Virus record (IMG/VR): IMGVR_UViG_3300005670_000019
DNA: 64,000 nucleotides
Reading direction: 5' to 3' (one strand)
Origin: a virus
Taxonomy: Duplodnaviria; Caudoviricetes
Shown here: piece by piece, positions 1,203 to 22,108 of the stretch
Numbering within the stretch: the first letter of the stretch is position 1
How the letters are laid out: every line of letters begins with the position of its first letter
Translations under genes and position numbers: made by a program
The notes under the pieces: model-generated
Database searches by the model: none
What the model was told of the DNA's origin: nothing
The model's input: only the letters and a program-made list of their open reading frames with translations

Positions 1203-1570
1203 TTACTTTCCTTTGAATTGGAGCCTTATAACACATAAAAATCGGATTTTAAACTATTTGCTTCATTTTCTGTTAGCTCTAAGAGAAAATATCTATTACC
1301 TTTAGAGCCTAGACTTTTGTATTCATCGCTAATGATGCTAATCACGGCATAATGAATTACAGTATGACCTTCAAGTCTGAACACTTTAATAGCCCTGTCG
1401 TTTTCTTTTAAATTTTCAAACGAAATAGGCTTCATTAAACTAAGCATCGATTCACATTCATCGGCTGACAACATCAACTCTTCTAACATTTTTGCAACAC
1501 TATTATCAATTTTTCTCATTTGAAAAATTCTTTTTGCAAAATTCATTTACTTTCCTTTGAATTGGAGCCT
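1199..1570. repeat. 28-bp perfect direct repeat (1199-1226 and 1543-1570) flanking ORF 1226-1546
   Basis: tcatttactttcctttgaattggagcct occurs twice; on the minus strand it is a tRNA 3' end (AGGCTCCA) + RBS + ATG. Confidence 0.9.
1226..1546 (-). CDS. hypothetical protein
   Basis: 106-aa ORF with RBS inside the direct repeat. Confidence 0.6.
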   Translation of the reverse strand: MNFAKRIFQMRKIDNSVAKMLEELMLSADECESMLSLMKPISFENLKENDRAIKVFRLEGHTVIHYAVISIISDEYKSLGSKGNRYFLLELTENEANSLKSDFYVL

Positions 1571-1605
1571 CCCACGGGATTTGAACCCTTGCAAGGACTA
1601 CGTTT
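1563..1605 (-). pseudogene. 3' half of an interrupted tRNA (Thr-like)
   Basis: AAGGGTTCAAATCCCGT-GGGAGGC-T-CCA; acceptor strand pairs with GCCTCTC at 2217-2211. Confidence 0.85.
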
Positions 1606-1616
1606 TCTGAATCTCT

Positions 1617-1691
1617 TGGAGCCCGCGACTGGAATCGAACCAGCTCTCTCCTTATTACAAGTAAGGTGCATGACCATTGTGCTTCGCGGGC
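1617..1691 (-). tRNA. tRNA-Thr(TGT)
   Basis: Cloverleaf; anticodon arm CCTTA-CTTGTAA-TAAGG; CCA encoded. Confidence 0.92.
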
Positions 1692-2155
1692 GCATCTTCA
1701 AAACCTTTGTTTCCTTTGCGAAATCTCTTAGAGGTTTTCTCCCCTCCTTTTCTTCCCCAATTCCGGAAATTGGGCGTTAGAGCATGGCAATTCGGACAAA
1801 GAACTCTCAGATTTTGACGCTGGTTATTTGTGTGGTCGCCATCTATATGATCGATTTCCAATATCGATCCACCACATGCTCTTGTCTTGCAAAAGCCACA
1901 TTGAGAACACTTGAACTCACTTTCTGCCAAGAGACGCTGACGTCTCTTTTCGCGACTAAGTTGTTCGAATGGAACAGTTTCCCACTTTACATCAGTCCAC
2001 TGATTGGACGCGGCGCCCCTTCTCTTGCGCATTGCTTCATAAAATGCGTCAGACTTAGGAGGTGGCTCTTTTCTATCCGGATTGCTTTTGCAGAAAGTTT
2101 GATGATATCCTATACCCCTCTTGGAGAATTCGTTGTTGCAATATTGACATTTCAT
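1655..2155 (-). CDS. HNH endonuclease
   Basis: CSQCG...LEIDHIDGDHTNNQRQNLRVLCPNCH; stop codon inside the tRNA-Thr anticodon loop. Confidence 0.9.
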   Translation of the reverse strand: MKCQYCNNEFSKRGIGYHQTFCKSNPDRKEPPPKSDAFYEAMRKRRGAASNQWTDVKWETVPFEQLSREKRRQRLLAESEFKCSQCGFCKTRACGGSILEIDHIDGDHTNNQRQNLRVLCPNCHALTPNFRNWGRKGGEKTSKRFRKGNKGFEDAPAKHNGHAPYL

Positions 2156-2187
2156 GACACTAACTATGGCAGAGCAAGGATACTTCT

Positions 2188-2217
2188 ACCGTTGCTCTAC
2201 CGTTGAGCTAGAGAGGC
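2188..2217 (-). pseudogene. 5' half of an interrupted tRNA (Thr-like)
   Basis: GCCTCTC-TA-GCTC-AACGGTA-GAGC-A-ACGGT: acceptor strand, D arm and start of anticodon stem. Confidence 0.85.
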
Positions 2218-2234
2218 ATTTTGTGCTATGATCA

Positions 2235-2263
2235 ACAATAGCAAGAAACCGACGAAATTTCAA
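2235..2263 (-). promoter_or_regulatory. sigma70-like promoter
   Basis: TTGAAA-N17-TATTGT immediately upstream of the tRNA 5' half. Confidence 0.6.
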
Positions 2264-2273
2264 GGAAAATCAT

Positions 2274-2648
2274 TCAGTTCTTTTTTTTGACCCAATCTTG
2301 GAACTTTCCCCAAATGAGTGGGTTATCGAGGTGCAAAGATTTGTAAATCCAAAGTCCAATAAATGGCATTGAATACCAAAAAAGAATATGATAACCCCAC
2401 AAGGAAACACTTCCAACAAGTAGAAGTGACACTGCAAGAGAAATCAAAATCAAAATTGGAATAGCAAAAAAGAAAGTAAACCCCCAAATTGATACATGCG
2501 GATTTTCAAAAAGTTCCTCAACAAGAGCCATCCAAACAAAAAGGATCGTGCGAAATACTCGAAGTGGATCAAACTTCCATTTGATTTCATTTTTTGGTGG
2601 CTTCGATGGCGTACGATATCCGCCATTTTCATTGTTGTTTGTTGTCAT
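2274..2648 (-). CDS. membrane protein, hypothetical
   Basis: Several hydrophobic segments. Confidence 0.6.
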   Translation of the reverse strand: MTTNNNENGGYRTPSKPPKNEIKWKFDPLRVFRTILFVWMALVEELFENPHVSIWGFTFFFAIPILILISLAVSLLLVGSVSLWGYHILFWYSMPFIGLWIYKSLHLDNPLIWGKFQDWVKKKN

Positions 2649-2827
2649 TGGTGTTGACCTTTCAAAACGTCATCAATCCCTTGGTGAGATAAGTTCAAAG
2701 AACCATGTAAAGACGGTTTTGATCGTATTCTTCCAATCTCTTTTTAGGTAAGTCCTAGCAACCCATGCACAGAAAAATCCTGTGATGAAGTAAGTTATCA
2801 GAGCTAAGGCAAAAGCAAAAGTCCAAC

Positions 2828-3202
2828 TCATAATACCTTCACAAACTTTCCGCGATTGAAATCATCTAATGGACAAAAGAATCTTCCAAAGATCATTTCT
2901 TTTGAAAATGGTGCTCTTTTTTTAGTTGAGAACTTTGAGTCTGTAGTCTCCAAAATAAACAAAGAAACAGAACTCCATTCCTCCGCACCCTTTCGAACAT
3001 AAATACGATCGATTTGAAAAATCGAATCTTTTGGAAAAGTCTTGTTGAATGCGTGTTTTTGAAATGTAGGGTTGGTCCATTTTGTTGGAAATGGAACATT
3101 TTCTGCCTCAAAAAGACACATGTTGCGGTGATCAACAATGACTGAAAATGTCCAATCATCAGGATTTTTAATTTTTGTTCCAAGTTCCGGAATGAAAAAC
3201 AT
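2828..3202 (-). CDS. hypothetical phage protein
   Basis: 124-aa ORF with AAAGG RBS; contains IDRIYVRKG. Confidence 0.65.
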   Translation of the reverse strand: MFFIPELGTKIKNPDDWTFSVIVDHRNMCLFEAENVPFPTKWTNPTFQKHAFNKTFPKDSIFQIDRIYVRKGAEEWSSVSLFILETTDSKFSTKKRAPFSKEMIFGRFFCPLDDFNRGKFVKVL

Positions 3203-3230
3203 AATGAACCTTTCTCAGTTGAGAGAAATT

Positions 3231-3304
3231 TGGTACAGGTAGCCGGAATCGAACCGACCTCTCAGCACTGGCAATGCCGCGTAATACCAATATACCATAC
3301 CTGC
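3231..3304 (-). tRNA. tRNA-Gly(GCC)
   Basis: Cloverleaf; CGGCA-TTGCCAG-TGCTG; CCA. Confidence 0.9.
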
Positions 3305-3566
3305 ATAGTTACCAGGGTTTTGAACTCCTTTATGAGTTCGATAAGTTTATCACTTTTCACAAAGGATAGTGCAATAAACTGCGTTTCAATTGTTCTAACT
3401 TTTCCCTGGTGTCTTGAGTGGTAAGCTACAAGAAAGTTAGCGGAGGGGAGACAACAACCTTTTGCACGAAACGCCCACAAAAGGTTCAGTACCCGGGATC
3501 CTCGGGTTTTATTTTGTGTGAACTTTCACTCCCAATGTTGAACACACTTTTCACTAATATTAGTGT

Positions 3567-3642
3567 TGGTCCGACATATGGGAATCGAACCCATCTCTAA
3601 CGGCTTATAAGACCGTCCCCTCAACCAGTTGGGTTATGTCGG
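3567..3642 (-). tRNA. tRNA-Ile(TAT)
   Basis: Cloverleaf; ACGGT-CTTATAA-GCCGT; CCA. Confidence 0.9.
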
Positions 3643-3664
3643 AAATACATGTATACTTATACGT

Positions 3665-4048
3665 ATGTCATTCAAACATTCTCAAGAAAGTTTATTGGAA
3701 TATCTAAAAAAATATTCTAACTCTAGATTGCCTAACACTCATAGAGTAAAATTACATTTACTCCAAACCAAATTTTTAGAAAACAAATGTTCAATTTGCA
3801 ATATGCCACCTTTTTGGTTTGGTAAACCCATTAGTTTCCATCTTGATCACATTGATGGAAACCCAAAAAACAATGAAGTTTCAAACTTCAGAATTCTTTG
3901 TCCAAACTGTCATTCTCAAACAGAAAGTTATTGCGGTAAAAAGAACACTAAAACCCAACACATAAGACAAAAATATTTTTGTCTTGATTGTAAATCAGAA
4001 ATTACATCAAGGGCAAAACGTTGCAAATCCTGTGCTCGACGAGCCTAA
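3665..4048 (+). CDS. HNH endonuclease
   Basis: CSIC...HLDHIDGNPKNNEVSNFRILCPNCHSQT plus C-terminal CxxC..CxxC; divergent from tRNA-Ile. Confidence 0.9.
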   Translation: MSFKHSQESLLEYLKKYSNSRLPNTHRVKLHLLQTKFLENKCSICNMPPFWFGKPISFHLDHIDGNPKNNEVSNFRILCPNCHSQTESYCGKKNTKTQHIRQKYFCLDCKSEITSRAKRCKSCARRA

Positions 4049-4066
4049 CCATTTGCCTACCCTTCC
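4041..4066 (-). pseudogene. 5' fragment of a tRNA (isotype unknown)
   Basis: GGAAGGG-TA-GGC-AAATGGTTAG-GCT just downstream of a promoter; overlaps the HNH stop codon. Confidence 0.6.
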
Positions 4067-4075
4067 ATATTCTTA

Positions 4076-4104
4076 ATTATGCCTCAAATTCGGAGAGATT
4101 TCAA
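4076..4104 (-). promoter_or_regulatory. sigma70-like promoter
   Basis: TTGAAA-N17-CATAAT. Confidence 0.6.
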
Positions 4105-4119
4105 GGCATAATTCAAAAT

Positions 4120-4815
4120 TCAGTATCCATCAAGTCCCACTGTGTTTTCATAAGTATCGATGACAAGCGGTCTATGACCTGGCTCGTAACTTTCGTTACA
4201 GATAGCCGCATTGACCACAGTAGAGCCCCAGGGCATTTTGTAAACCCCGTAAGAGTAATGAATGTGTCCACACACAATCCATTTTGTCTTCGTCTCAGAA
4301 AGGCGTGTGGTGAGTTCTGGACAGCCATAATGAACAAGTCTACTTACGTACTTGTTCTTATAATCCGGACCAACATCACCATACATTGAGGGCGGACCAT
4401 GCGTAATCAAAACATCAGTTTCTTCGGGAAGTTGATCCCAAATGTCACGAGCCTCCGGTCCAGGCTCGTAACCCCATCCCCAACTTCCTGCAATTGGAGA
4501 ATAGCTTTCGCCATAGAAATTCAGACCATCAATGGTCACAAGTTCATTATGAATGAACTGAACATTTCCATCGTACTTTTCAAGATGGTACTTGTAATAC
4601 CTAGTGTTTCCAGAAAACTCTGCTTCATGATTGCCGCAAATTACGAGCTTATGTTCGTGAGGTTGAGCTGCAAACCATTTGGCAAATTGTTCAATTTGTT
4701 CAAGAGTTCCTGTTCGGGAAAAGTCGCCTGCATGAACGAGAACATCACCCATAGGAATTGGATGATAAAGCCTATCATGAAGACAATGAGTGTCACTGAT
4801 GCAGACGATTTTCAT
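4120..4815 (-). CDS. calcineurin-like metallophosphoesterase
   Basis: SDTH, HAGD, GNHE, HGPP and GHIH motifs. Confidence 0.92.
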   Translation of the reverse strand: MKIVCISDTHCLHDRLYHPIPMGDVLVHAGDFSRTGTLEQIEQFAKWFAAQPHEHKLVICGNHEAEFSGNTRYYKYHLEKYDGNVQFIHNELVTIDGLNFYGESYSPIAGSWGWGYEPGPEARDIWDQLPEETDVLITHGPPSMYGDVGPDYKNKYVSRLVHYGCPELTTRLSETKTKWIVCGHIHYSYGVYKMPWGSTVVNAAICNESYEPGHRPLVIDTYENTVGLDGY

Positions 4816-5113
4816 ACTTTATTCTATGATGATTTCGTCAGAATTTCAAACAACATTTCATTCTTCTTCTAGTTTTGTGAAGCGAATGTCCGTCTCGCAC
4901 TCAATAATCGCACCATTCTTACAAAGAGCTGCAACTCTGACAAAGCGTCCTGGAGAAAATGATCCCTTTCCAATGAAAGAAGAAACTTGATCATCCAAAT
5001 CAATAAGAAGAATGAATAGAGTACAATCTATGTACTGGTACTTTTCATTGAAGAAAACTAATGATTGAAACTTTCTTCTTGGAAAAAGAATTGTACCTGT
5101 TTCGAGACACATT

Positions 5114-5566
5114 TTAGAAAGTCTTTGGTTTGTTGGGTGATCGGACAAAAAACTTTTTCAATCTTTCAACGAAAGATTTCCACTTTTCTTGTCGCAACTT
5201 TGACTTCTCTTGTCGAAGTCTTTCTTTTTCTCTTTTTCTCTCAAGCTTCTCGTTGAGAGCCTTCGCTCTTCGGTCAGCTTCACAGTTTCCGCATTCATAA
5301 GCCCAATTAGCATTATGATCTAGAAATGTGTTGAAATACTTTTGCTGGCATTCGTGACAGAGAACTTTTCCACAAACACAACAAACAACGGGTTCTCCAT
5401 GTTCACAAATTGCGTTTCTTTCCCAACCTTTAGGCGGAAAGTCACGGGGTCGATGATATGCATGAAACGCCGCTGCTTTCCTTCGCAACCAATCAAAGTG
5501 ATGATTGTCACGATATTCTAGCTCAGCTTTCAGCCGAGCATTTTCTTTTCGAAGGTCTTCACTCAT
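5114..5566 (-). CDS. hypothetical Cys-rich protein
   Basis: CCVCGKVLCHEC...CGNC; coiled-coil C-terminus. Confidence 0.6.
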   Translation of the reverse strand: MSEDLRKENARLKAELEYRDNHHFDWLRRKAAAFHAYHRPRDFPPKGWERNAICEHGEPVVCCVCGKVLCHECQQKYFNTFLDHNANWAYECGNCEADRRAKALNEKLERKREKERLRQEKSKLRQEKWKSFVERLKKFFVRSPNKPKTF

Positions 5567-5948
5567 TGGAAGTTGCTTGTTTGTTAGGATTAGGAGGCAC
5601 AAGTGTTAGGTTTCCTACATATGTCCAACCATGAAAAAGAACACCTTCTTGATGCCGAAAAACTACTTCAACTCTTGGATTGGTGTCCAACTCTTGTGGA
5701 ATCTTGCTATGATTCGTGTATATCACATGTTCTAATCTAGACCACATTTTCTGGTATGGTCCTTTGTTTTGGAAATACAAAGGACCATCACCAATATACA
5801 TCCCTGTATATTTAGAACGAGTTATGTCCGCCACGAAGTCGTCAAATATCCAGTTTTTTGACGAAAAAAGACGTATTGATGGAAAGCGTAAATAAATTGG
5901 CGTCCCAGCTTCAACGACATGAATTTCTTCTGGATCGTCAAACATCAT
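5559..5948 (-). CDS. hypothetical protein
   Basis: ORF coupled to both neighbours. Confidence 0.55.
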   Translation of the reverse strand: MMFDDPEEIHVVEAGTPIYLRFPSIRLFSSKNWIFDDFVADITRSKYTGMYIGDGPLYFQNKGPYQKMWSRLEHVIYTNHSKIPQELDTNPRVEVVFRHQEGVLFHGWTYVGNLTLVPPNPNKQATSNE

Positions 5949-6390
5949 GTCCGGGCATTGGAGGAGCGCAAACGTCTGTGACGCAGTTGACAGGAGAGGC
6001 GCCCTTGACAACAGTCAAGACACCGCGAATTTTGTTGACACGAAAAACATGTTGCGAGAAGCCGACGGGAATGTCAAAATTCCAGCCGTTTCGTGCAGCT
6101 TCACCAGCCGAAGCGAAAGCTCCTAGGGCACGCAAAAGTTGCGGCATTCGCCACTCGCGGGGAGCAGTCCAAACAATGTCGGTCGGTTGAATGTCGCAGA
6201 CACCTTCCCAAAAGGGCTTGGAAAGTGCCGTTTGGCAATCCGGACCTACGAAAACCGTCCCGAAATCGACGAAGGACTGAACCTTTCCCCCCAGGAAAAC
6301 CTTGCATTTCTGCTCGATATCTCCCGCGAGATTGACCATCGTTTCGTTGTGCCGAGCCATTTCGCTCGCAAGATTTAGCATTTTCGACAT
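5938..6390 (-). CDS. hypothetical protein, possible S4-like RNA-binding segment
   Basis: QLLRALGAFASAGEAARNG resembles the S4 helix pair; directly after a promoter. Confidence 0.5.
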   Translation of the reverse strand: MSKMLNLASEMARHNETMVNLAGDIEQKCKVFLGGKVQSFVDFGTVFVGPDCQTALSKPFWEGVCDIQPTDIVWTAPREWRMPQLLRALGAFASAGEAARNGWNFDIPVGFSQHVFRVNKIRGVLTVVKGASPVNCVTDVCAPPMPGHDV

Positions 6391-6396
6391 GCCTAC

Positions 6397-6425
6397 ACTA
6401 TAGCATATGGGTCGACCATTTTCAA
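6397..6425 (-). promoter_or_regulatory. sigma70-like promoter
   Basis: TTGAAA-N17-TATAGT with extended -10 TG. Confidence 0.7.
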
Positions 6426-6445
6426 GTAATGCTAACCCCTTGAAA

Positions 6446-7021
6446 TCATTGGTAAACTGCTCGGTCTACGCCGTGATTACAATCCTTTAGGGTCGCGTCG
6501 GGCAAGCAGAGCCAGTGTCCGCGTTCGATTTCCTCGAAAAGTTCTCGTTCAATTGAGTACGTTCTAATTTCATTATCGAACGAAAGGTCCACGGTCCAGT
6601 TTTCGGGATGGTGAACGGGAACCTGGCGACAAGATTGCACCTTTCCAACGGTCGTACATTGTGTGTTGTACGTTGTATATGGAGGGTGATATTCCTTCGA
6701 AGAAATAGTTCCGACATATCGGTCGCGACTAACATGATCACTGATTGCGGAACCAGCAAGATAAATCAGGTAACAAACAAAAAGAAATCCAACAACCATC
6801 AAAAGGTAAGGAAACAATCCTTTGAGGTCATCCCAAAGTCCTGCAATCTTCTCACCAATCCAAGAAAGATAGGAAGACTTCTTCTTGAGTTTTGCAAGTT
6901 GCTTGTGAAGATCATGAATTGTTTTGCGGCTTGAGAGAACTTCCTTATTCAAGGAGGAAATCTTTTCCTTACTCTCATTCAGCTCGCGGCGAATTCTGGC
7001 TTCATCATCCGATCTATACAT
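6446..7021 (-). CDS. membrane-anchored hypothetical protein
   Basis: Coiled coil + one TM helix + predicted extracytoplasmic domain. Confidence 0.65.
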   Translation of the reverse strand: MYRSDDEARIRRELNESKEKISSLNKEVLSSRKTIHDLHKQLAKLKKKSSYLSWIGEKIAGLWDDLKGLFPYLLMVVGFLFVCYLIYLAGSAISDHVSRDRYVGTISSKEYHPPYTTYNTQCTTVGKVQSCRQVPVHHPENWTVDLSFDNEIRTYSIERELFEEIERGHWLCLPDATLKDCNHGVDRAVYQ

Positions 7022-7032
7022 GAGTCAAACTT

Positions 7033-7287
7033 TCAAAAGAAAGGGTTCGTTTTTTCAAACTGCGGTTTGTAACTCAACAGAAGTCTTGGCTCTACCAAAG
7101 TAGAGCTTTTATGTCCACCGGGCTCAATGAATTGAATTTCAATAAGTCCATCTTCATCCTCAAGTGAGGAGATTTTAGCTTCATGAACTTCAAGAGATTG
7201 TGGATAAATGCAAGGGAACTTGGGAGAACCATATTCATCAACTTCTGCTGAAAGAAGCCAAACTGTCTGCCCGATTTCAAAGCTCAT
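7033..7287 (-). CDS. hypothetical protein
   Basis: 84-aa ORF with AAGGA RBS. Confidence 0.55.
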   Translation of the reverse strand: MSFEIGQTVWLLSAEVDEYGSPKFPCIYPQSLEVHEAKISSLEDEDGLIEIQFIEPGGHKSSTLVEPRLLLSYKPQFEKTNPFF

Positions 7288-7358
7288 ACCAAACTGTCCT
7301 TACAAAGATAGTTGCCGAAGCAACAAAAGAAAAACTCAAAAGAAAGAGTGTCATAATT

Positions 7359-7432
7359 TGGAGTCGCCCGTCAGTAACGATCTGACCTCAACCAGTTTTG
7401 CAGACTAGTGCCATCACCTGATGGAGAGCGAC
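7359..7432 (-). tRNA. tRNA-Cys(GCA)
   Basis: CTAGT-CTGCAAA-ACTGG; U73; atypical T-loop ATCGTTA. Confidence 0.85.
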
Positions 7433-7440
7433 ATGTAACC

Positions 7441-7469: not shown

Positions 7470-7473
7470 CTAA

Positions 7474-9533: not shown

Positions 9534-9536
9534 TCT

Positions 9537-14070: not shown

Positions 14071-14113
14071 TGGTGCTCAGGGCGGGATTCGAACCCGCAA
14101 GCCGTTTATAGGC
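14071..14113 (-). pseudogene. 3' half of an interrupted tRNA-Leu
   Basis: Variable arm GCC-TATAAAC-GGC, T arm GCGGGTTCGAATCCCGC, CCTGAGC-A-CCA; pairs with GCTCAGG at 14680-14674. Confidence 0.88.
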
Positions 14114-14119
14114 ATAAAT

Positions 14120-14206
14120 TGGTACCGAGAACAGGATTTGAACCTGCACCCACGTAAAGTGGACAACGCTCTCAACGTTGCGGGTCTGCCATTCCCCCAC
14201 CTCGGC
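14120..14206 (-). tRNA. tRNA-Leu(GAG)
   Basis: CAACG-TTGAGAG-CGTTG; long variable arm; A73; CCA. Confidence 0.92.
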
Positions 14207-14660
14207 ATTTTTTGTTTTTACGACCTCTCCAACCATCGGTTTGACTATGACAGTTAGGACATAGTAACCTTAGATTTGAAAGATTGTTATTTTTCCTATT
14301 TCCATCGATATGATCTAATTCCAATACTATTTTTTGATTATTCCACAAATCCAAAGAACACATTGCGCATTTATAATGCAACAATTTTTCCTTCAAAAGC
14401 CTCTTTTTTAGATTATCTGATTTGACAAAATGTTTATTTGACAAAATCTCGTCTAGAGAAATTTTATTGTGTGGAGACTTCCCAAGATTTGAACCTTTTC
14501 CCAAGAAATGGGAAATGTCAATATTCCAATTTGATATCCATTTTGTTATGGTGGTATAATTTCCACCAGATTCGTTCATATTCATCTTGAATATGACTTG
14601 TCGGAGTGACGTGGAACTTTTCACACATTCCTCAAGTTTTTCTTTTGAGAATTTCGGCAT
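14172..14660 (-). CDS. HNH endonuclease
   Basis: CAMC...LELDHIDGNRKNNNLSNLRLLCPNCHSQT; stop codon inside the tRNA-Leu anticodon loop. Confidence 0.92.
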   Translation of the reverse strand: MPKFSKEKLEECVKSSTSLRQVIFKMNMNESGGNYTTITKWISNWNIDISHFLGKGSNLGKSPHNKISLDEILSNKHFVKSDNLKKRLLKEKLLHYKCAMCSLDLWNNQKIVLELDHIDGNRKNNNLSNLRLLCPNCHSQTDGWRGRKNKKCRGGGMADPQR

Positions 14661-14680
14661 TCCAGTTCCACCACCTGAGC
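14661..14680 (-). pseudogene. 5' part of an interrupted tRNA-Leu
   Basis: GCTCAGG-TG-GTGGAACTGGA fused directly to the HNH ATG. Confidence 0.85.
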
Positions 14681-15701: not shown

Positions 15702-16289
15702 TCATTCAACAACAGAAGCCAGGGACTTTTCAATCTTTCTACGTTCCTTCCAGATCCAAGGATCTACAAGAACTTCGTGATGCGTCAACATTCCAGCAAT
15801 TTCTGCTGGAAGGCTGCCAGATGCAGCAAGGTGCAACAAATATTGTCTTTGTTCACCAGAATAACAAAAGACCTTTCCAAAATGCTCAAGGTCAAAAGGA
15901 ATGATCGAAATCAAAAACTTCTTTTGATCCTCTTGAAACCATCGCATGAAAGGAGAGAGATAGTTGAAAGTCCAACTATCCGTCTCACGAAACTCACAAA
16001 CACGAGCTGAATAAAAAGCAGAAACTTCTGCAAGATATTCTCGCAAAAGCGAGGCACGTTCGAGGTCACGCAGTCCCTTCTCATGAGACGTAGTATTTAC
16101 TCGACGCATTCCTCGGCAATGAAAGAAGTTTTCTGCCTTATGCAACTTGACATACTCAGGCATTTCTTCGAAACGAGAAAGTTCTTCATCCGTTAGATTC
16201 TGGTTCTTTAGAACCAGTTTATCAAACGACCGAATGGTTTCGATCATTTCTTGCTCGGTCGGAATCCACTTTTGCTTCTTCTGTCGCAT
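15702..16289 (-). CDS. hypothetical protein
   Basis: 195-aa ORF downstream of a TTGAAA/TATAGT promoter (16296-16323). Confidence 0.65.
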   Translation of the reverse strand: MRQKKQKWIPTEQEMIETIRSFDKLVLKNQNLTDEELSRFEEMPEYVKLHKAENFFHCRGMRRVNTTSHEKGLRDLERASLLREYLAEVSAFYSARVCEFRETDSWTFNYLSPFMRWFQEDQKKFLISIIPFDLEHFGKVFCYSGEQRQYLLHLAASGSLPAEIAGMLTHHEVLVDPWIWKERRKIEKSLASVVE

Positions 16290-16330
16290 ACCTTCACTAT
16301 ATCAGGTTTTGGGGGATTTTCAAGAAACGT

Positions 16331-16405
16331 TGGAGCCCTCATCCGGACTCGAACCGGAATTACTCCCTTACCAAGGGAGGGTAATAACCTTTATACTATG
16401 AAGGC
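16331..16405 (-). tRNA. tRNA-Thr(GGT)
   Basis: CTCCC-TTGGTAA-GGGAG; CCA. Confidence 0.92.
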
Positions 16406-16412
16406 ACTAAAT

Positions 16413-16529
16413 TGGGCGCGAGCATGGGTTTTCACCATATCTTCCCCTTCAAGCTTGGGGACGTGCTCCACTAATATTCAACAAAGCTCATTCGTCTTTG
16501 ACTTAAATTAGGTTTTACACTAACTCGCA
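16413..16529 (-). ncRNA. tRNA-like RNA with ~50-nt D-loop hairpin (copy B)
   Basis: Acceptor stem + CCA, D stem GTGT/GCAC with insert, TCCCC-AAGCTTGAA-GGGGA, T-loop TGAAAAC. Confidence 0.75.
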
Positions 16530-16533
16530 TAAT

Positions 16534-16653
16534 TGGTGGGGCTGGAGGTTTTTCACCTCATTCATGCTCTATCGCTTAGAGCCGCACTTACATGTTGTTT
16601 CTCTAATCCATTCAGATATGAAAAACAGAAAACCTTCTTTATGCTACAGCCCC
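16534..16653 (-). ncRNA. tRNA-like RNA with ~50-nt D-loop hairpin (copy A)
   Basis: GGGGCTG/CAGCCCC-A-CCA, D stem GCAT/GTGC with insert, GCTCT-AAGCGAT-AGAGC, T-loop TGAAAAA. Confidence 0.75.
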
Positions 16654-16677
16654 CAAGAGGTAAGAAGGTAAAGAAAG

Positions 16678-16755
16678 TGGTCAGGGTGATAGGACTTGAA
16701 CCTACAACCTCTCCGATCCGAACGGAGCCATCTACCAGATTGATATTACACCCTG
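16678..16755 (-). tRNA. tRNA-Pro(CGG)
   Basis: CTCCG-TTCGGAT-CGGAG; C1:G72, A73; CCA. Confidence 0.9.
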
Positions 16756-16860
16756 AAAGTAAGTAATCAGGATCAACAGCGCATCGCACCGACCCCTAAG
16801 ATGTGCGCCAAACTCGCCCACAACAATGACAGGGGTGTTGACTGATTACTTTTCAAACTT

Positions 16861-16935
16861 TAGCGTCTCTGGAAGGATTCGAACCTACGACCGTCAGCTT
16901 AGAAGGCTGCTGCTCTTCCTCTGAGCTACAGAGAC
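16861..16935 (-). tRNA. tRNA-Arg(TCT)
   Basis: CAGC-CTTCTAA-GCTG; 3' end reads CTA instead of CCA. Confidence 0.9.
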
Positions 16936-17179
16936 ATTGAACCCTTGTTCTCAATTAATAAGGTAAGTCTACTAATATGTTTGTAACCCCCAAGGGCTCA
17001 ACAAGTTCCCAAACATATTCCTTTGTAGTGCTCCGCGACAATAATCACTTTCCGTTTAGTGAGTAGCACTCCTCACCTAAACTAAGTCCTTTTTCTCTGT
17101 GAACTCATGAAGTCGCGAACATCACTTACCCACAGAAACTCTGCATTCGTATAGAAGTTTAGGACGAACTTCTGTACTT

Positions 17180-17255
17180 AGGCTGTAGCGGAAGGCTTCG
17201 AACCTTCATATCCTTGATTAACAGTCAAGTCTCTTACCAATTAGAGTACACTACA
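17180..17255 (-). tRNA. tRNA-Asn(GTT)
   Basis: CTTGA-CTGTTAA-TCAAG; G73; 3' end reads CCT. Confidence 0.9.
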
Positions 17256-17527
17256 ATGTTTTGTGCATCAGCCCCCGCGCTCGCAAATTGAGCTCCCACG
17301 CCATGCACTCGACCCGCCTAATATTACTTGAAATAGAAGTTCGGGTCTTACCATCTTTGTTTCCAGTTTTATCTTTCAACAAAGAAAAGAAGTAGTGGCG
17401 GTTGAGGTCGCCGCTATGCTCTTAATTTCCTCAACGTTTGAAGAACGACCAAATTAAGAAAAATCGTTCTTTTAATTTTGCGCCTCTCAGCCTTATTGCT
17501 GGTTTGCGCTGTGTAAACTATGAATTG

Positions 17528-17603
17528 TGGCGTCCACGGACGGATTCGAACCGACATTGTCCTGCTTGAAAGGCAGGTTTCCTAACCGTTAGAAGACATG
17601 GAC
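17528..17603 (-). tRNA. tRNA-Glu(TTC)
   Basis: CCTGC-CTTTCAA-GCAGG; CCA. Confidence 0.92.
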
Positions 17604-17979
17604 ATGGTGACGCCTCTCAACAGTATTGTTGGTTTGCGTCGGTGGATGATTTCCACGGTACATCATCATAATGACAGACTTCGCTGTCATTATCAAGCAA
17701 AGTTTTATGAAAACGAAACTTTGCGAAGTTAGTATTGCTCTTCCGCTACTCTGGCGAAGGAACCTTTTTATAAAAGCATTTTGTAGAAAGTTTTACTCTG
17801 TTGTCGAGTGCCACCTCGACAGCAATTAGTCTCTCATTCTACATGCTTCTTTTGTATGGGTTCGGCAAAGAAATTAATGCTTACGCGCTATAAACATTAG
17901 TCCCTTGCATATCTTTCCGGAGAAAGGACTCCTATCCAATTCTCAATCAAGATACCGAAAGAACTGGTTCAAAAAACAA

Positions 17980-18052
17980 CTACAAACAAAGGGAATCGAA
18001 CCCTCTTCTTCCGGATTGGAGTCCGGATGCACACCATTTGCATAGTTTGCAG
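17980..18052 (-). pseudogene. degenerate tRNA (Gly- or Trp-like), 6-nt anticodon loop
   Basis: CCGGA-CTCCAA-TCCGG; canonical T arm; no CCA. Confidence 0.6.
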
Positions 18053-18057
18053 CTATT

Positions 18058-18133
18058 TGGTTCAGGAGGTAGGATTCGAACCTACAACAACCAGATTCAA
18101 AGTCTGGGACTCTAACCATTGAGCTACTCCTGA
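18058..18133 (-). tRNA. tRNA-Gln(TTG)
   Basis: CCAGA-CTTTGAA-TCTGG; CCA. Confidence 0.92.
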
Positions 18134-18552
18134 ATATTTAGATACCAATTTTGTTCTCTAGCTGTCTTTCTTTTGTGACAGTTTGAACAAAGAATCTGAC
18201 ATTTTTTAATTTCTTTTTCTATTGATTTCCATGAATATCCTTCGATGACCATTCTAGAAATATTTTGAGTTTTTGTCGAAGGATTCACATGATCAAATTC
18301 AAGAACAATCGGATCTTTTTCTCCACAATCAACACATGGATGAGTTTGTAAAAACTCAAACACTAGTTTTCTTATCAAGATTTTTCTGGTTTTATTTCTT
18401 TCCAAGAATTTGTTTCTATTATTTTCATAGAAACATTTCAAATTTTTCTTATTGCACTCTCTACAGTAGGATTGTAGGAGATTTTTCTCTTGGTTTTTCC
18501 AAGAAAAACTATTCAGGTTTTTTTCTTGTTTGCATCTTCCACATTGTTTCAT
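18124..18552 (-). CDS. HNH endonuclease
   Basis: CVDCGEKDPIVLEFDHV...KCQILCSNCH; TAG stop inside the 5' end of tRNA-Gln. Confidence 0.9.
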   Translation of the reverse strand: MKQCGRCKQEKNLNSFSWKNQEKNLLQSYCRECNKKNLKCFYENNRNKFLERNKTRKILIRKLVFEFLQTHPCVDCGEKDPIVLEFDHVNPSTKTQNISRMVIEGYSWKSIEKEIKKCQILCSNCHKRKTAREQNWYLNIQE

Positions 18553-18582
18553 ATGGAAATATAGTTTTGAAAACTATAAAAT

Positions 18583-18620
18583 GTTCAAAGCCTTTTGTCT
18601 TACCATTAGACGAACCCCGA
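18583..18620 (-). pseudogene. 5' half of a truncated tRNA-Gln(TTG)
   Basis: TCGGGGT-TC-GTCT-AATGGTA-AGAC-A-AAAGG-CTTTGAA, then breaks off just before the HNH gene. Confidence 0.85.
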
Positions 18621-18626
18621 AAAAAT

Positions 18627-18730
18627 TGGCAGTGGGGATTGGATTTGCACCAATATCCTTATTACGTCGTCAAAAAATCTCGTTCGTATTTGCCTTCAAC
18701 GCATTGCTCTAACTTATGAGCTACCCCACC
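18627..18730 (-). ncRNA. tRNA-like RNA with expanded anticodon arm
   Basis: Intact acceptor, D and T arms and CCA; ~45 nt replace the anticodon arm. Confidence 0.7.
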
Positions 18731-18751
18731 GATGGAACGAGAATGAATTGT

Positions 18752-18822
18752 TGGCAAGGTTTGGAGTTGCACCAAGAAGGATTTTTCACTTACTCATTAG
18801 CCTTACTAAGAGTTACCTCACC
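18752..18822 (-). ncRNA. tRNA-like RNA with extended D arm and no clear anticodon stem
   Basis: GGTGAGG/CCTTGCC acceptor; T arm TTGG-TGCAACT-CCAA. Confidence 0.55.
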
Positions 18823-18826
18823 GAAA

Positions 18827-18902
18827 TGGTTCGAGAGACAGGACTTGAACCTATAACCACCGAGTTCAGAGCCCGGCGCTCTACCAATTGAGCTACTCTC
18901 GA
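18827..18902 (-). tRNA. tRNA-Gln(CTG)
   Basis: CCGGG-CTCTGAA-CTCGG; CCA. Confidence 0.92.
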
Positions 18903-19055
18903 ATAGTTGAGGTCTTTACCTCACGCCTAGGAAAATTCTTGAGGTTTTCCTAGAACTATTACAGTTCTTAGTGTCTGTATCACTGGTTGACTTTTATCCA
19001 AGTCAACGCGGAGTGGATTTCATTTTAGGACAAAACCCACAAAGAGTCCCAAGTT

Positions 19056-19080
19056 TGGTACGAGCGACAGGATTCGAACC
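19056..19080 (-). pseudogene. 3' fragment of a tRNA (Gly-like acceptor)
   Basis: GGTTCGAATCCTGT-CGCTCGT-A-CCA just downstream of tRNA-Gly(TCC). Confidence 0.7.
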
Positions 19081-19122
19081 AATTGGTAGCAATCCATCAA
19101 AATCGCTTTTGCTACTATTTAT

Positions 19123-19197
19123 TGGAGCGGGCGATGGGACTCGAACCCACAACAACCAACTTGGAAGGCTGGCACTCTACCATTGAGTTACACCCGC
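19123..19197 (-). tRNA. tRNA-Gly(TCC)
   Basis: CCAGC-CTTCCAA-GTTGG; U73; CCA. Confidence 0.93.
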
Positions 19198-19214
19198 AAA
19201 AGGAAACTATAATT

Positions 19215-19617
19215 ATGTCAAGAAAACGAAATCCAAAAAATTGGTGTCTGAAATGTAGTAGCCGATGTAGAAATTCTAGAAGCAATTTATGCAGTATTTG
19301 TCATTCACAACAATTAAGTGTGAATTTTGGACAAACATATCGAATTGCTGATTTCAGCCAACTTCAATCTAGACACAGATTTCAACCTATACGAAATCAT
19401 GCCAAAAGAGTTATGAACTCGTCAAACAAAGAAAAAAATTTGCAATGTTTGTGGTTACAACAAACATGTTGAAGTTGCTCATCTAAAACCGATTCACTCT
19501 TTCCCCAAGGAAACATTATTAGAAACAGTAAACAACATTTCCAATCTGTTATATTTGTGTCCCAATTGTCATTGGGAACATGATAATGGGTTATTAGATG
19601 CAACAACTTCACAATGA
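19215..19617 (+). pseudogene. HNH endonuclease frameshifted at an A7 run (19432-19438)
   Basis: Removing one A joins MSRKRN... to CNVCGYNKHVEVAH...NLLYLCPNCHWEHD. Confidence 0.8.
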
Positions 19618-19797
19618 AACAATGACACATGATGCAGCAAAGCGTTCATCTTTTTTAGAAAGAAAACGTTGAGCTGCTTCATATGTAGCCCAAGTCTTTG
19701 TATCCGGATCAAGAGGGTCCTGCGTATATGGTTTCCGATTTGTTGATCTTTTCGTCACGTAACCATGACAGTCCCAACGAATTACGAACTTGCCCAT
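19609..19797 (-). CDS. hypothetical protein
   Basis: 62-aa ORF with GAGG RBS. Confidence 0.5.
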   Translation of the reverse strand: MGKFVIRWDCHGYVTKRSTNRKPYTQDPLDPDTKTWATYEAAQRFLSKKDERFAASCVIVSL

Positions 19798-19819
19798 ATA
19801 AACCTCAAATCCTTTAATT

Positions 19820-19894
19820 TGGAGCCCACTATCGGATTCGAACCGATATATCCAACTTACGAGGTTGGTGTCCTAGCCATTGAACGAAGCAGGC
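19820..19894 (-). tRNA. tRNA-Thr(CGT)
   Basis: CCAAC-CTCGTAA-GTTGG; CCA. Confidence 0.92.
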
Positions 19895-19918
19895 AAACAA
19901 AACAACTTACCAATTCTT

Positions 19919-20148
19919 CAAGGACGCTACTCCTAGCAAACTCTACAGTTCACTGTTTTTATTCCTCTTTCGAGGAGTCCGCTCGGACTTCTATGGGTTG
20001 GTTTCATTGTTTTTTCACAAACAATCTATCAAAATCGGCAGGGGTCGCTACACCCAACATAGAGTAAACTATATTGAACTCCTTTTCAGGAGGACTCGCT
20101 TGAGCGCGGTTCTTATGGATTTGCTTCGATTGTTTTCAGAAATTGTAC
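19919..20148 (-). ncRNA. two tandem diverged copies of a ~110-nt structured motif
   Basis: Same order of motifs in both: TGAAAA.ACAAT, CAA.CCATA, hairpin, TCCTC..GAAA..GGA, GG.GTAGCG.CC. Confidence 0.55.
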
Positions 20149-20305
20149 TACACTCTGTTCGCCGTGGCAGGCTGTAGCTCACCTCTGTTTATGAAACAAA
20201 CCGACTGCTGATCAGGTTCGCCGAATGTTTCATTGGTACGTCAGAAAAACCATCATGTTTTGCCTTCCCATCATAAAAGAGAAGTTTCGACATGATTCAA
20301 ACTGT

Positions 20306-20390
20306 TGGTGGGGATGGAAGGATTCGAACCTACTATTCAAAAGAAACGGTTTTACAGACCGCCGCAACACTCCAACGTTGCCGCATCCCC
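20306..20390 (-). tRNA. tRNA-Tyr(GTA)
   Basis: GCGGT-CTGTAAA-ACCGT; variable arm; CCA. Confidence 0.92.
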
Positions 20391-20538
20391 ATTTGACTTC
20401 ATAAATTTTGTTATGAAGTCAGCTCTATGTTAAACAAATATACTATATTATTCATCGGTAAGTCAATCAAGTTGACGAACCTAGTCCTATTTGGACTCAT
20501 CTTTTTTTTTCTAGACAACTACTTTCTCTTTCGAGAAA

Positions 20539-20613
20539 TGGCAGGTCGTAAAGGACTTGAACCTCTATCTCCCGGTTCGTAGCCGGGTACTCTATCCATT
20601 GAGCTAACGACCC
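20539..20613 (-). tRNA. tRNA-Arg(ACG)
   Basis: CCCGG-CTACGAA-CCGGG; CCA. Confidence 0.93.
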
Positions 20614-20787
20614 AAAACTAGAGAATGATTTATCACCTTCTCAGACTAAATGTCTCCAGTTCAATAAACCTATACTCGTTCTCCGTCGAGCTTCTACCCG
20701 AAGAAGGGCTCTGTTTTTAGGATGATTAGTCCCTTCTTCATAGGGTAATTTGAGCACAAACCCTACTAGTTGATATCACTCAACACG

Positions 20788-20874
20788 TAGCTGAGGAGGA
20801 AGGAATCGAACCTACATAGCCTCTTTCAAGACACAGGTTAACAGCCTGTCGCATTACCTTTATGCTACTCCCCA
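20788..20874 (-). tRNA. tRNA-Asn(GTT) with a long variable arm
   Basis: ACAGG-CTGTTAA-CCTGT followed by GTCTTGAAAGAGGC hairpin; 3' end reads CTA. Confidence 0.8.
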
Positions 20875-20875
20875 A

Positions 20876-20891
20876 TATTCAGTTTTCAAAC
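20876..20891 (-). promoter_or_regulatory. boxA-like antitermination motif
   Basis: GTTTGAAAACTGAATA. Confidence 0.55.
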
Positions 20892-20912
20892 TTCACAAGG
20901 AAGCTTAGAATT

Positions 20913-20985
20913 TGGATGCGGTCGCCGGAACTGCCCCGGTCCATTTGGTTATGAGCCAAATATGCAACTAGTACACCACCCCGCA
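20913..20985 (-). tRNA. tRNA-Met(CAT), initiator-like
   Basis: TGCGGGG acceptor; TTTGG-CTCATAA-CCAAA; atypical T-loop GGCAGTT; CCA. Confidence 0.75.
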
Positions 20986-21135
20986 ATAGGTTCAGGCTTG
21001 AAATGCATTCTAGAAATGCAAGTTCATTAGATAGTAGTATCACTACACGCTAGCCTGTTAGCGCAACACGGCTCCCACCGCCCGTGATGGGTCGGCTGCC
21101 GTAGATACTTGCAAAAACACCGTGAATAGTTAAGT

Positions 21136-21257
21136 CAACAAATAGAGAGGATTCGAACCTCTTGTTGAGCCGTCGCTCAAAGCACCAGACATTATGACAT
21201 TTCAGTCATAATCACAGGAATCGAACCTGCCATGTACTCGCCAATCGCTATTTGTTG
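21136..21257 (-). ncRNA. multibranch RNA with two T-arm hairpins
   Basis: 10-bp closing stem CAACAAATAG/CTATTTGTTG enclosing CAGGTTCGATTCCTG and GAGGTTCGAATCCTC. Confidence 0.6.
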
Positions 21258-21263
21258 TTCTTT

Positions 21264-21348
21264 TGGTACTCCCACCCGGATTCGAACCGGGACTCCCGAA
21301 GGAACCTGATTTTGAGTCAGGCGCGTCTGCCAGTTCCGCCATAGGAGC
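21264..21348 (-). tRNA. tRNA-Leu(CAA)
   Basis: CCTGA-CTCAAAA-TCAGG; variable arm; CCA. Confidence 0.93.
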
Positions 21349-21355
21349 AAAACAT

Positions 21356-21431
21356 TGGTGGATCAAAACGGACTTGAACCGATAACCCCCTGCGTGCAAA
21401 GCAGGTGCTCTCCCAATTGAGCTATTGACCC
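21356..21431 (-). tRNA. tRNA-Ala(TGC)
   Basis: CCTGC-TTTGCAC-GCAGG; G3:U70; CCA. Confidence 0.93.
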
Positions 21432-21570
21432 GTTGTACCAGTCTTTCCTGATCGTCCGCCCTTGTTTTGGTTCAGAGCTCACCCTAGATTAAATATGTAG
21501 AGAAAAAAGGGAAACCGAGTCCCTAAACAACCACATAAACAAGCAGTCGCGTGTCCAACTCTCTCTACAT

Positions 21571-21650
21571 TTACGCTTTTACGACTCGAACGTACCTGTA
21601 ACCTACTCATGCATTTTCGATTACCGTGCTCACCCTACACTGAAGCGTAA
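21571..21650 (-). ncRNA. tRNA-like RNA with a 15-nt anticodon loop
   Basis: TTACGCTT/AAGCGTAA stem, D arm GTGT/GCAC, GTAATC-N15-GGTTAC, T arm TACG-TTCGAGT-CGTA; no CCA. Confidence 0.6.
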
Positions 21651-21658
21651 GCTAAGTT

Positions 21659-21733
21659 TGGTGGGTCGCCCCGGAATCGAACCGGGCTCGGTCAGATTAA
21701 AAGTCTGGTGCATCACCTTGATGCTAACAACCC
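21659..21733 (-). tRNA. tRNA-Lys(TTT)
   Basis: CAGA-CTTTTAA-TCTG; CCA. Confidence 0.92.
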
Positions 21734-22065
21734 AATTTTAGCAATCCTTCGTGGATTTCAGCATGACAGTTTGCACACACCAAAATACACTTATCAAGTT
21801 CTTTTTGAACTTTTTCCCAAGACATTCCCCAATTTCCAGAAATTTGGAAATCTTTTTCTTTTGGGATCAAATGGTGAAAGTGAAGAGCTTGTTTAGCACG
21901 ACTGTATCCACAAATTGAACAACAGTTTCCTTTGTATTTGTAGATTTCTTCTTCTCGAAGCCTTCTTCGTCGAGCAACAAGACAAGAATTACAAGTTTTG
22001 TTTCTGTGACCTTTTGCCCTATTTGGTGTGTAGGTTCGACCACAGTCTTCGCAAGAAACTTCCAT
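21724..22065 (-). CDS. HNH endonuclease
   Basis: CSICGY...ALHFHH...ELDKCILVCANCHAEIH; TAG stop inside the 5' end of tRNA-Lys; own promoter at 22073-22101. Confidence 0.9.
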   Translation of the reverse strand: MEVSCEDCGRTYTPNRAKGHRNKTCNSCLVARRRRLREEEIYKYKGNCCSICGYSRAKQALHFHHLIPKEKDFQISGNWGMSWEKVQKELDKCILVCANCHAEIHEGLLKLGC

Positions 22066-22108
22066 GTCAACTACTATGACACGAAACTCGGTGACTTTCA
22101 AGGAAAGT

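Follow-up and report, generated by a model that had tools for sequence, protein, structure and literature searches.

HNH homing-endonuclease genes joined to substitute tRNAs as probable mobile cassettes in the tRNA array of a large wastewater phage

Six HNH genes within a phage tRNA array

Genes for nucleases of the HNH type are spread through a large array of transfer RNA (tRNA) genes in a ~300-kb wastewater phage, each of them joined to a complete tRNA and most of them accompanied by the remnants of a second, broken one. The DNA considered here, a 64-kb part of that genome (virus record IMGVR_UViG_3300005670_000019) referred to as the window, encodes a large terminase of the T4 type, and its DNA is present in sequencing runs from sludge, wastewater and aquatic metagenomes, none of them an RNA run. 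The array spans 1.6-26.5 kb, with all of its tRNA genes on the minus strand; ARAGORN counts 33 tRNAs in it, to which Rfam adds Tyr, His and two odd ones. A six-frame scan for HNH-type finger and catalytic His motifs returned exactly six genes in the 64 kb, all of them within the array and named here after the tRNA that they adjoin (Table 1). Pfam HNH or HNH_3 matches, weak to moderate in strength, were obtained for five of the six, above the curated cut-off for Leu and Gln and below it for Thr, Ile and Lys; only HNH-type domains, and no GIY-YIG domain, are given by Pfam for these open reading frames (ORFs). At least three sequence types are represented, with the Thr, Leu and Ile enzymes alike near the active site and the Gln, Lys and Gly enzymes each distinct. 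A sequence search of solved structures with HNH-Thr and HNH-Gln gave no significant match.

All six genes adjoin the 5' end of an intact tRNA, at a distance of 20 nt or so at most (22 nt for Ile, 17 nt for Gly). With ~37 tRNA 5' ends per ~25 kb, the chance that one gene end falls within 20 nt of such an end is ~0.06 by our own arithmetic, so that adjacency in six of six is far beyond chance. Four of the genes point the same way as their tRNA and run into it, with overlaps of 37 (Thr), 35 (Leu), 10 (Gln) and 10 nt (Lys); the stop codon lies in the anticodon loop for HNH-Thr and HNH-Leu and coincides with U8-A9-G10 of the tRNA for HNH-Gln and HNH-Lys. The other two, HNH-Ile and HNH-Gly, are antisense, and their ORFs start at the distances just given. 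Because the co-oriented ORFs end inside the tRNA, 5' processing of that tRNA would cut the nuclease mRNA ahead of its stop codon, and it may be speculated that processing of the overlapping transcript keeps nuclease levels low.

Remnants of a second tRNA, placed by local alignment to the intact tRNAs of relatives and by the joints found in strain contigs, lie beside five of the six units. Thr and Leu retain both halves of the broken tRNA, Ile and Gln a piece from its 5' side, and Gly a piece from its 3' side. The Thr and Leu units each run from the 5' remnant through the HNH gene and the whole tRNA to the 3' remnant, and their two remnants have acceptor halves that are mutually complementary. 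The broken (resident) and whole (carried) tRNAs have identical anticodons for Thr, Ile, Gly and Gln; for Leu, the resident reads AAG and the carried tRNA GAG, in the same codon box. The units measure 477-605 nt and contain an HNH ORF and a tRNA only. No Rfam intron family matched positions 1-27000 at E values up to 10, and an intein is excluded as the host context because the host gene is an RNA gene. An earlier note, made from the letters of the window, had described six HNH genes each adjoining an intact tRNA, with fragments (the same halves) at five units and no need of an intron or intein; the motif scan, Pfam, ARAGORN and Rfam, together with the alignments and strain joints, bear out this picture.

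Table 1. Coordinates of the HNH genes, the joined tRNAs and the tRNA remnants in the window
Feature	Coordinates	Strand	Evidence or remark
Thr 5' remnant, resident tRNA-Thr(TGT) positions 1-24	2194..2217	-	29/30 to intact L044 tRNA-Thr (with 6-nt extension); joint at 2194 in four runs
Donor-type tRNA extension of Thr 5' remnant, 6 nt	2193-2188	-	brought in by the cassette
HNH-Thr, 166 aa	1655..2155	-	Pfam HNH_3/HNH; stop in anticodon loop of carried tRNA
Carried tRNA-Thr(TGT)	1617..1691	-	ARAGORN; Rfam 55.8 bits; 0.64 to resident, 0.97 to L035 carried copy
Thr 3' remnant: T arm, acceptor, CCA	1563..1588	-	alignment, strain joint, reconstruction
Ile 5' remnant, resident tRNA-Ile(TAT)	4048..4066	-	18/19 to L044 and 24/27 to L035 intact Ile-TAT
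HNH-Ile, 127 aa, antisense	3665..4048	+	translation, motif, Pfam HNH_3 E=0.002
Carried tRNA-Ile(TAT)	3567..3642	-	ARAGORN, Rfam; 0.60 to relatives' Ile-TAT (no match)
Leu 5' remnant, resident tRNA-Leu(AAG)	14659..14680	-	alignment, strain joint, reconstruction
HNH-Leu, 162 aa, start at junction	14172..14660	-	Pfam HNH_3 25.2 bits, HNH 21.9 bits, both above cut-offs
Carried tRNA-Leu(GAG)	14120..14206	-	ARAGORN, Rfam; 0.68 to resident
Leu 3' remnant, resident tRNA-Leu(AAG): variable arm, T arm, acceptor, CCA	14071..14116	-	joint 14116->14659 in X6, X12; ARAGORN reconstruction
Gln 5' fragment, positions 1 to ~41, anticodon loop TTG	18578..18618	-	tRNA-Gln type absent from relatives
HNH-Gln, 142 aa	18124..18552	-	Pfam HNH 25.3 bits; homologues adjoin tRNAs in many phages
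tRNA-Gln(TTG) joined to HNH-Gln, carried or resident	18058..18133	-	0.79 to relatives' Gln-TTG, in the orthologue range
HNH-Gly, antisense, frameshift between 19420 and 19472	19215..19617	+	three-frame translation
62-aa ORF, no known family, comes and goes with HNH-Gly	19609..19797	-	strain joints
Carried tRNA-Gly(TCC)	19123..19197	-	ARAGORN, Rfam; 0.65 to relatives' Gly-TCC
Gly 3' remnant, resident tRNA-Gly(TCC)	19056..19080	-	23/25 to 3' end of intact L035/L044 Gly-TCC; downstream flank also matches
HNH-Lys, 113 aa	21724..22065	-	Pfam HNH below cut-off, motif; stop = U8-A9-G10
Carried tRNA-Lys(TTT), full replacement, no remnant	21659..21733	-	0.67 to HNH-free Lys-TTT at same position in L035

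Cassette-free alleles and horizontal movement

Among named phages no close relative of the window was found, and only single tRNAs were matched. The neighbouring metallophosphatase, used as a query against viral contigs, found no relative either, and the terminase recovered 32 loci at 34-51% identity that are of no use for synteny because none has tRNAs near the terminase. The protein encoded mid-array at 10583-11608 has homologues 78% identical on contigs of ~300 kb and 66 kb, and the syntenic loci compared (L035-L040 and L044) have the same tRNA and gene order as the window. For comparison of strains, contigs from four runs (X5, X6, X9 and X12) of four independent studies, mostly 95-99% like the window, were placed on 1500-21499, a stretch outside which the Lys site lies; parts of it lacking contig cover in a given run were left out of account.

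At all six corresponding positions (Thr, Leu, Ile, Gly, Lys and Gln), intact tRNAs without HNH genes are found among the syntenic relatives L035 and L044. The former carries the Thr and Leu units with both remnants, and its Lys-TTT, Gly-TCC, Gln-TTG and Ile-TAT are without HNH; the latter has no HNH at the Thr or Leu site, where intact Thr-TGT and Leu-AAG are found. In L044, positions 1-30 of the tRNA-Thr(TGT) agree with the Thr 5' remnant and its T arm and acceptor agree with the 3' remnant, and the ends of the tRNA-Leu(AAG) match both Leu remnants. The Ile 5' and Gly 3' remnants likewise match the ends of intact Ile-TAT and Gly-TCC in both relatives.

The same sites are polymorphic among strains that are nearly identical to the window. 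At the Thr site, the cassette is present in none of the four runs, and in each of X5, X6, X9 and X12 a joint 1588->2194 is found with 25 other letters between. The Leu cassette is absent from X6 and X12 (14116->14659 with 20 letters between; in X12, 14113->14659 with 23) and present in X9, through both junctions, and in X5, whose contig reaches into the HNH gene. The Ile cassette is absent from X5, X6 and X12 (3570->4048, 54 letters between) and present in X9, whose contig runs through it. At the Gly site only HNH-Gly and the 62-aa ORF (19210-19814) are absent, in X6 and X12, with a joint 19209->19815 at a 5-nt repeat; they are present in X5, whose contig reaches into the HNH gene. Together with the strain inserts, the remnants of the window make up 75 and 88 nt, in which ARAGORN calls tRNA-Thr(TGT) and tRNA-Leu(AAG). 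In strains without the Thr, Leu or Ile cassette, the HNH gene and its joined tRNA are missing together and the resident tRNA is whole, while the window has lost 25, 20 and 54 nt, respectively, from the middle of the resident gene. These empty alleles in near-identical strains show that the cassettes are polymorphic within one phage species, with presence and absence at the same site documented for Thr, Leu, Ile and HNH-Gly. No cassette-free Gln allele was seen among the close strains, of which X6 has a contig that runs through the Gln junctions.

The tRNAs carried by the cassettes differ markedly from those whose fragments they adjoin. Identity between carried and resident tRNAs is 0.60-0.68, the level of unrelated tRNAs, as compared with 0.73-0.99 for orthologous tRNAs of the two phages; the carried tRNAs are thus not orthologues of the residents, yet they keep the anticodon or, for Leu, the codon box. 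The expectations of the earlier note that empty alleles with an intact ancestral tRNA exist and that the carried tRNA is diverged in sequence are thereby upheld, the former in L035, L044 and the strains of four studies.

Horizontal movement is most evident for the Thr cassette. Positions 1563-2217 are 91.9% identical to L035, the longest such block in 27 kb, in which neighbouring coding genes reach 63-75%; the block covers both HNH and tRNA and ends exactly at the outer ends of the remnants, beyond which the flanks do not align. The HNH-Thr protein is 94.6% identical in amino acids to the L035 copy, with pS 0.25 and pN/pS 0.08, a ratio that indicates a nuclease kept by purifying selection. Moreover, the Thr 5' remnant is mixed: the window lineage accounts for positions 1-24, as it does for the 3' remnant, whereas positions 25-30 are of the L035/L044 type. 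Cassette-free strains of the window lineage have a Thr allele whose anticodon stem is entirely different from the L035/L044 version. The mixture of donor and recipient sequence marks a co-conversion tract, and co-conversion of donor flanks was found for Thr only. The donor already had the cassette in a Thr gene, and the exchange points fall within the ~24 and ~26 nt of tRNA sequence common to donor and recipient. Two Thr alleles with unrelated anticodon stems are both occupied; should cleavage have driven both events, the nuclease would be expected to recognise the D arm/acceptor or the T arm, which the alleles share, and recognition by SegB of phage T4 likewise includes a T-loop motif (PMC2330249). 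Between the window and L035, the Leu remnants differ by compensatory changes, and the intact alleles of the respective lineages carry these too, a pattern that speaks for separate invasions, each of an allele diverged beforehand.

The arrangement recurs in other viruses. Among 162 viral loci with homologues of four of the HNH families, 58 have a tRNA start within -50 to +60 nt of the ORF stop, and the overlap in those 58 is often exactly 10 nt, with U8-A9-G10 as the stop codon, as in the window. The nearest HNH-Thr homologues (59-64% identity) are all on tRNA-Thr(TGT), and more distant ones are on other isotypes. Two unrelated contigs, L047 (Arg-ACG) and L055 (Val-TAC), bear nested units whose remnant and joined tRNA agree in anticodon, and on L061 a Pro-TGG 5' remnant lies beside a joined Pro-TGG. 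Two further Thr units, on L095 and L098, are also nested, with the upstream remnant breaking after the same position as in the window and the anticodon of the broken tRNA not readable. Wherever the remnant's anticodon can be read, in the window and on L047, L055 and L061, it agrees with the joined tRNA; fragments of random isotype, which the earlier note named as evidence that would count against its proposal, were looked for and are not what is found, and the match of isotype that it claimed extends beyond the window. In named phages, HNH-Gln homologues (37-43% identity) are flanked by tRNA genes on both sides, with the order tRNA-Met, HNH and tRNA-Met in Jada and, in Streptomyces phage JimJam (L094 1381-1996), tRNA-Pro(TGG), HNH and tRNA-Pro(TGG) with a 10-nt overlap of ORF and tRNA. 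On L095 (1415-2170), a chimeric tRNA lies downstream of the carried Thr-TGT, its body Lys-TTT-like and its 3' acceptor strand pairing with the upstream Thr-type 5' remnant, which suggests repeated overwriting at one site.

It is likely, in our judgement, that the units are cassettes of ~0.45-0.6 kb in which a free-standing HNH homing-endonuclease gene and a complete tRNA land together in, or replace, a resident tRNA gene of the same anticodon or codon box. From the comparison of alleles, the cassettes appear to be mobile and to replace what they destroy. In a mixed infection, each nuclease would break the resident tRNA gene of a cassette-free genome, and a cassette-bearing genome would serve as template for the repair, the short homology arms being provided by the tRNA gene's conserved ends, a step for which the co-conversion tract and the block boundaries speak in the Thr case. 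The middle of the resident gene would be lost in the process, as seen in the 25, 20 and 54 nt missing at the Thr, Leu and Ile sites, and the joined tRNA, which differs in sequence, reads the same codons and is presumably functional and uncut, would take over decoding. At a later stage the nuclease gene would decay and be deleted and the swapped tRNA allele would remain, as fits the Gly site. The outcome would be a turnover of tRNA alleles that involves neither intron nor intein.

Alternative explanations and the less settled sites

That only the HNH gene is mobile, settling in spacers upstream of tRNAs, with the neighbouring tRNA being the resident and the broken tRNAs stemming from unrelated recombination or decay, is the alternative that survives best, and we regard it as improbable. 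Several observations count in its favor and, by the same token, against the proposed cassettes. In JimJam and PumpkinSpice the HNH gene lies between two tRNA-Pro genes, both of which are present ~21 nt apart in HNH-free relatives, at least 13 of them for JimJam; an HNH gene that is present or absent between two residents can move alone, and the tRNA is not always in the mobile unit. At the Gln site, the Gln-TTG of relatives resembles the joined tRNA (0.79) and not the 5' fragment, and the insertion there may have brought HNH-Gln and an old fragment to the upstream side of a resident tRNA. At the Gly site, HNH-Gly and the 62-aa ORF come and go and the new Gly tRNA stays, which can be read as a later, separate insertion of the HNH gene. 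Non-orthologous tRNAs, such as Ala-TGC, also occur without HNH. In addition, the Leu cassettes of the window and L035 have HNH genes only ~60% identical in DNA and tRNAs 98% identical, and thus no single simple shared history, and the window's own Thr cassette comes from one assembly, the same arrangement being found in four independent assemblies of a relative.

Against movement of the HNH gene alone stand the strains without the Thr, Leu and Ile cassettes, in which HNH and joined tRNA are missing together and the resident is whole. Moreover, the order of 5' remnant, HNH, tRNA and 3' remnant cannot come from insertion into a spacer, and the 92% block shared with L035 spans both HNH and tRNA. 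The claim of the earlier note that the tRNA is part of the mobile unit therefore holds for Thr, Leu and Ile and fails for JimJam, where the HNH moves by itself. Its reading of the units as selfish elements is otherwise supported, with the qualifications that HNH-Gly is frameshifted and that the Gln fragment is of a type not found in relatives.

The Gly, Lys and Gln sites differ in what they preserve. In X6 and X12, the frameshifted HNH-Gly and the 62-aa ORF are gone, and the new Gly tRNA and the old remnant are kept, a pattern that fits the loss of a decayed homing endonuclease gene after replacement. The Lys unit has no tRNA remnant. A tRNA-like piece upstream of HNH-Lys was considered as a broken Ala tRNA and rejected, being conserved in L035 with compensatory changes; this conserved tRNA-like gene (22118-22196, minus strand) has an anticodon loop with TGC (Ala), a G3:U70 pair and an abnormal D arm, was missed by ARAGORN and Rfam, and shows the compensatory changes of its L035 counterpart in the acceptor and anticodon stems.

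The Gln unit is less settled than the others because its 5' fragment type is not seen in relatives. Cassettes homologous to it elsewhere have the same layout, in which a 5' remnant that takes in the anticodon arm is followed by the HNH gene and the joined tRNA, and we somewhat favour the same mechanism for the Gln unit, with a remnant that is older or of foreign origin. Two tRNA-like features lie close by. Just upstream of the unit, a 101-nt tRNA-like sequence (18630-18730, minus strand; Rfam 38.8 bits) with normal acceptor, D and T arms and an anticodon loop of ~32 nt is absent from relatives and may represent either the scar of a cassette now excised or a small insert. Directly after Gln-TTG, ARAGORN calls a tRNA without an assigned isotype and with an abnormal anticodon loop (17980-18051, minus strand), which has no counterpart in L035 or L044.

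It is very unlikely that the interrupted tRNAs still work, either through intron-like removal of the insert from the transcript or through the joining of halves as in split archaeal tRNAs. The Thr and Leu breaks do fall at the anticodon arm or close to it, the place of bacterial tRNA introns, and the acceptor halves can still pair, the Leu halves of the window and L035 differing by compensatory changes. However, deletion has removed the anticodon loop together with parts of its stem (25 nt in Thr, 20 nt in Leu), so that the halves are not of the split or permuted archaeal type, and the Ile, Gly and Gln units keep one side only. No group I or group II intron family is matched, the T stems of the Thr remnants contain mismatches, and the Thr 3' remnants differ between phages far more than the cassette does. 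The Leu changes were considered as a sign of a working split tRNA and rejected, since the intact alleles of each lineage carry them and separate invasions explain them.

An assembly artefact, in which cassettes of co-occurring phages were stitched in through shared tRNA words, is less probable still. The window's Thr cassette is found only in its own assembly, and the other four runs are without it, but contigs from independent runs cross the junctions at Ile and Leu (in X9) and at Gln (in X6), the Thr and Leu nesting recurs in four independently assembled samples of a relative, and the shared tRNA stretches (24-26 nt) are below the usual assembly word length. Integrase-type insertion, which is suggested by the facts that tRNA genes are the classical targets of islands and prophages and that partial tRNA copies flank such elements, can be set aside almost entirely, since it would duplicate one end of the target, whereas the 477-605-nt units hold no integrase, the remnants are not copies of the adjacent whole tRNA (0.60-0.68) and resident sequence is deleted rather than duplicated.

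With the cassette interpretation thus preferred, its wider bearing can be considered. Homing endonuclease genes are thought to persist in important genes only by way of self-splicing introns or inteins, or by placement between genes. Here an element would break a gene and deliver a substitute, presumably a working one, within the same small cassette. It is a tentative proposal, which we hold with considerable doubt, that cassettes of a nuclease and a substitute tRNA form a general, unnamed class of mobile element, that they provide a third way for a homing endonuclease to occupy an indispensable gene, that they are a main engine of tRNA allele turnover in large phage arrays, and that the new stems and loops may help escape from host nucleases that attack tRNAs. 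If swapped tRNAs differ in sensitivity to host anticodon nucleases, selfish cassettes may also benefit the phage. Several stages appear to be represented in one genome, namely recent invasions (Thr, Leu, Ile), a decaying nuclease (Gly) and a complete replacement (Lys), and, because strains that have and strains that lack the Thr, Leu and Ile cassettes occur in nature, enzyme recognition, homology-arm length and the rate of tRNA turnover become testable. Stray tRNA halves and duplicate isoacceptors in phage arrays would also find an explanation, and annotators may regard such fragments as probable scars of mobile elements.

Other features of the region are recorded here for completeness. tRNA-Tyr(GTA) and tRNA-His(GTG), on the minus strand at sites listed as 20309-20390 and 23993-24064, are called by Rfam and missed by ARAGORN. 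At 20917-20984 (minus strand) there is a weak Met-like Rfam match (20.4 bits) with an odd T arm, and at 20790-20874 (minus strand) a tRNA-Asn(GTT) of 85 nt, long for Asn and without a close counterpart in L035. Presence/absence or replacement among strains also affects 4896-5585, 8183-8315, 9302-9529, 12087-12350 and 13075-13295, where small coding genes come and go. An extra 121-aa gene in L039 was considered as an HNH gene and rejected, having no HNH domain. Outside the array, ~52000-58000 has a GC content of 0.47-0.50, as compared with 0.34-0.40 in both flanks, a positive GC skew, and plus-strand ORFs in an otherwise minus-strand region.

Comparison with known homing systems

The closest characterised system is SegB of phage T4, a free-standing GIY-YIG homing endonuclease encoded in the T4 tRNA gene cluster, which cuts the tRNA genes of relatives that lack it, with a preferred site within T2L's gene for tRNA-Asn and a recognition sequence that includes a T-loop motif (PMC2330249; PMC13096335). 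SegB is inherited preferentially, along with neighbouring tRNA genes, and needs no intron or intein (PMC2330249; PMC13096335). Like the HNH cassettes, it is a nuclease gene among phage tRNA genes. It differs in being of the GIY-YIG family and in lying between genes, whereas the nucleases of the window are HNH enzymes and, for Thr and Leu, nested in a broken tRNA gene. Furthermore, no substitute tRNA of the same isotype joined to the segB ORF has been described, and SegB homing changes which tRNA genes are present, whereas the cassettes replace like with like.

The idea that tRNA processing limits nuclease expression has been discussed for both SegB and the enzymes of phage T5 (PMC2330249). In T5, nuclease ORFs likewise lie within the tRNA cluster, and it has been proposed that processing of the tRNAs in the transcript controls how the ORFs are expressed; the citing text, in the part available, reports no nested arrangement or linked replacement tRNA for them. 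Jada and JimJam resemble the window in having HNH-Gln homologues between tRNA genes, with the same 10-nt overlap in JimJam, and JimJam differs in that no gene is broken and the HNH gene alone is the mobile part; the papers cited for these phages offer no mechanism.

Free-standing nuclease genes outside tRNA arrays offer a further parallel. SegF and SegG of T4 are reportedly engaged in intronless homing, and mobE is said to split the nrd genes of Aeromonas phage Aeh1. Homing endonuclease genes that split their host gene are also known from fractured genes with split inteins (PMC2677866). As in the cassettes, a free-standing nuclease gene of the SegF/SegG or mobE kind spreads by break repair with co-conversion of its flanks, and it may sit in an essential gene if the function is rescued. 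The difference lies in the rescue, which is achieved there by intergenic position, proteins in two pieces or split inteins, and in the cassettes would be achieved by a second complete gene copy.

Homing endonucleases are also carried by group I introns in bacterial and phage tRNA genes (PMC3984707). Such introns share with the cassettes an insertion in or near the anticodon arm and flanking tRNA halves that serve as homology arms for homing. The cassettes differ in having no ribozyme match and in that 20-54 nt are missing from the resident tRNA, among them the anticodon loop, so that splicing could not restore it. Nor do they resemble the islands that integrases insert at tRNA genes, as the units are without a recombinase and the remnants are not copies of the adjacent tRNA.

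In a literature search of limited extent, no published description was found of a tRNA gene that harbours both a nuclease gene and a replacement tRNA of its own isotype. By their HNH nuclease family, their polymorphism at the same site, their co-conversion (for Thr) and their location outside any intron or intein, the cassettes belong with the free-standing homing endonuclease genes, among which the linked substitute tRNA is the new part. As an instance of such genes they are unusually well documented, since a single genome holds six units that stand at different stages and strains both with and without cassettes exist in nature.

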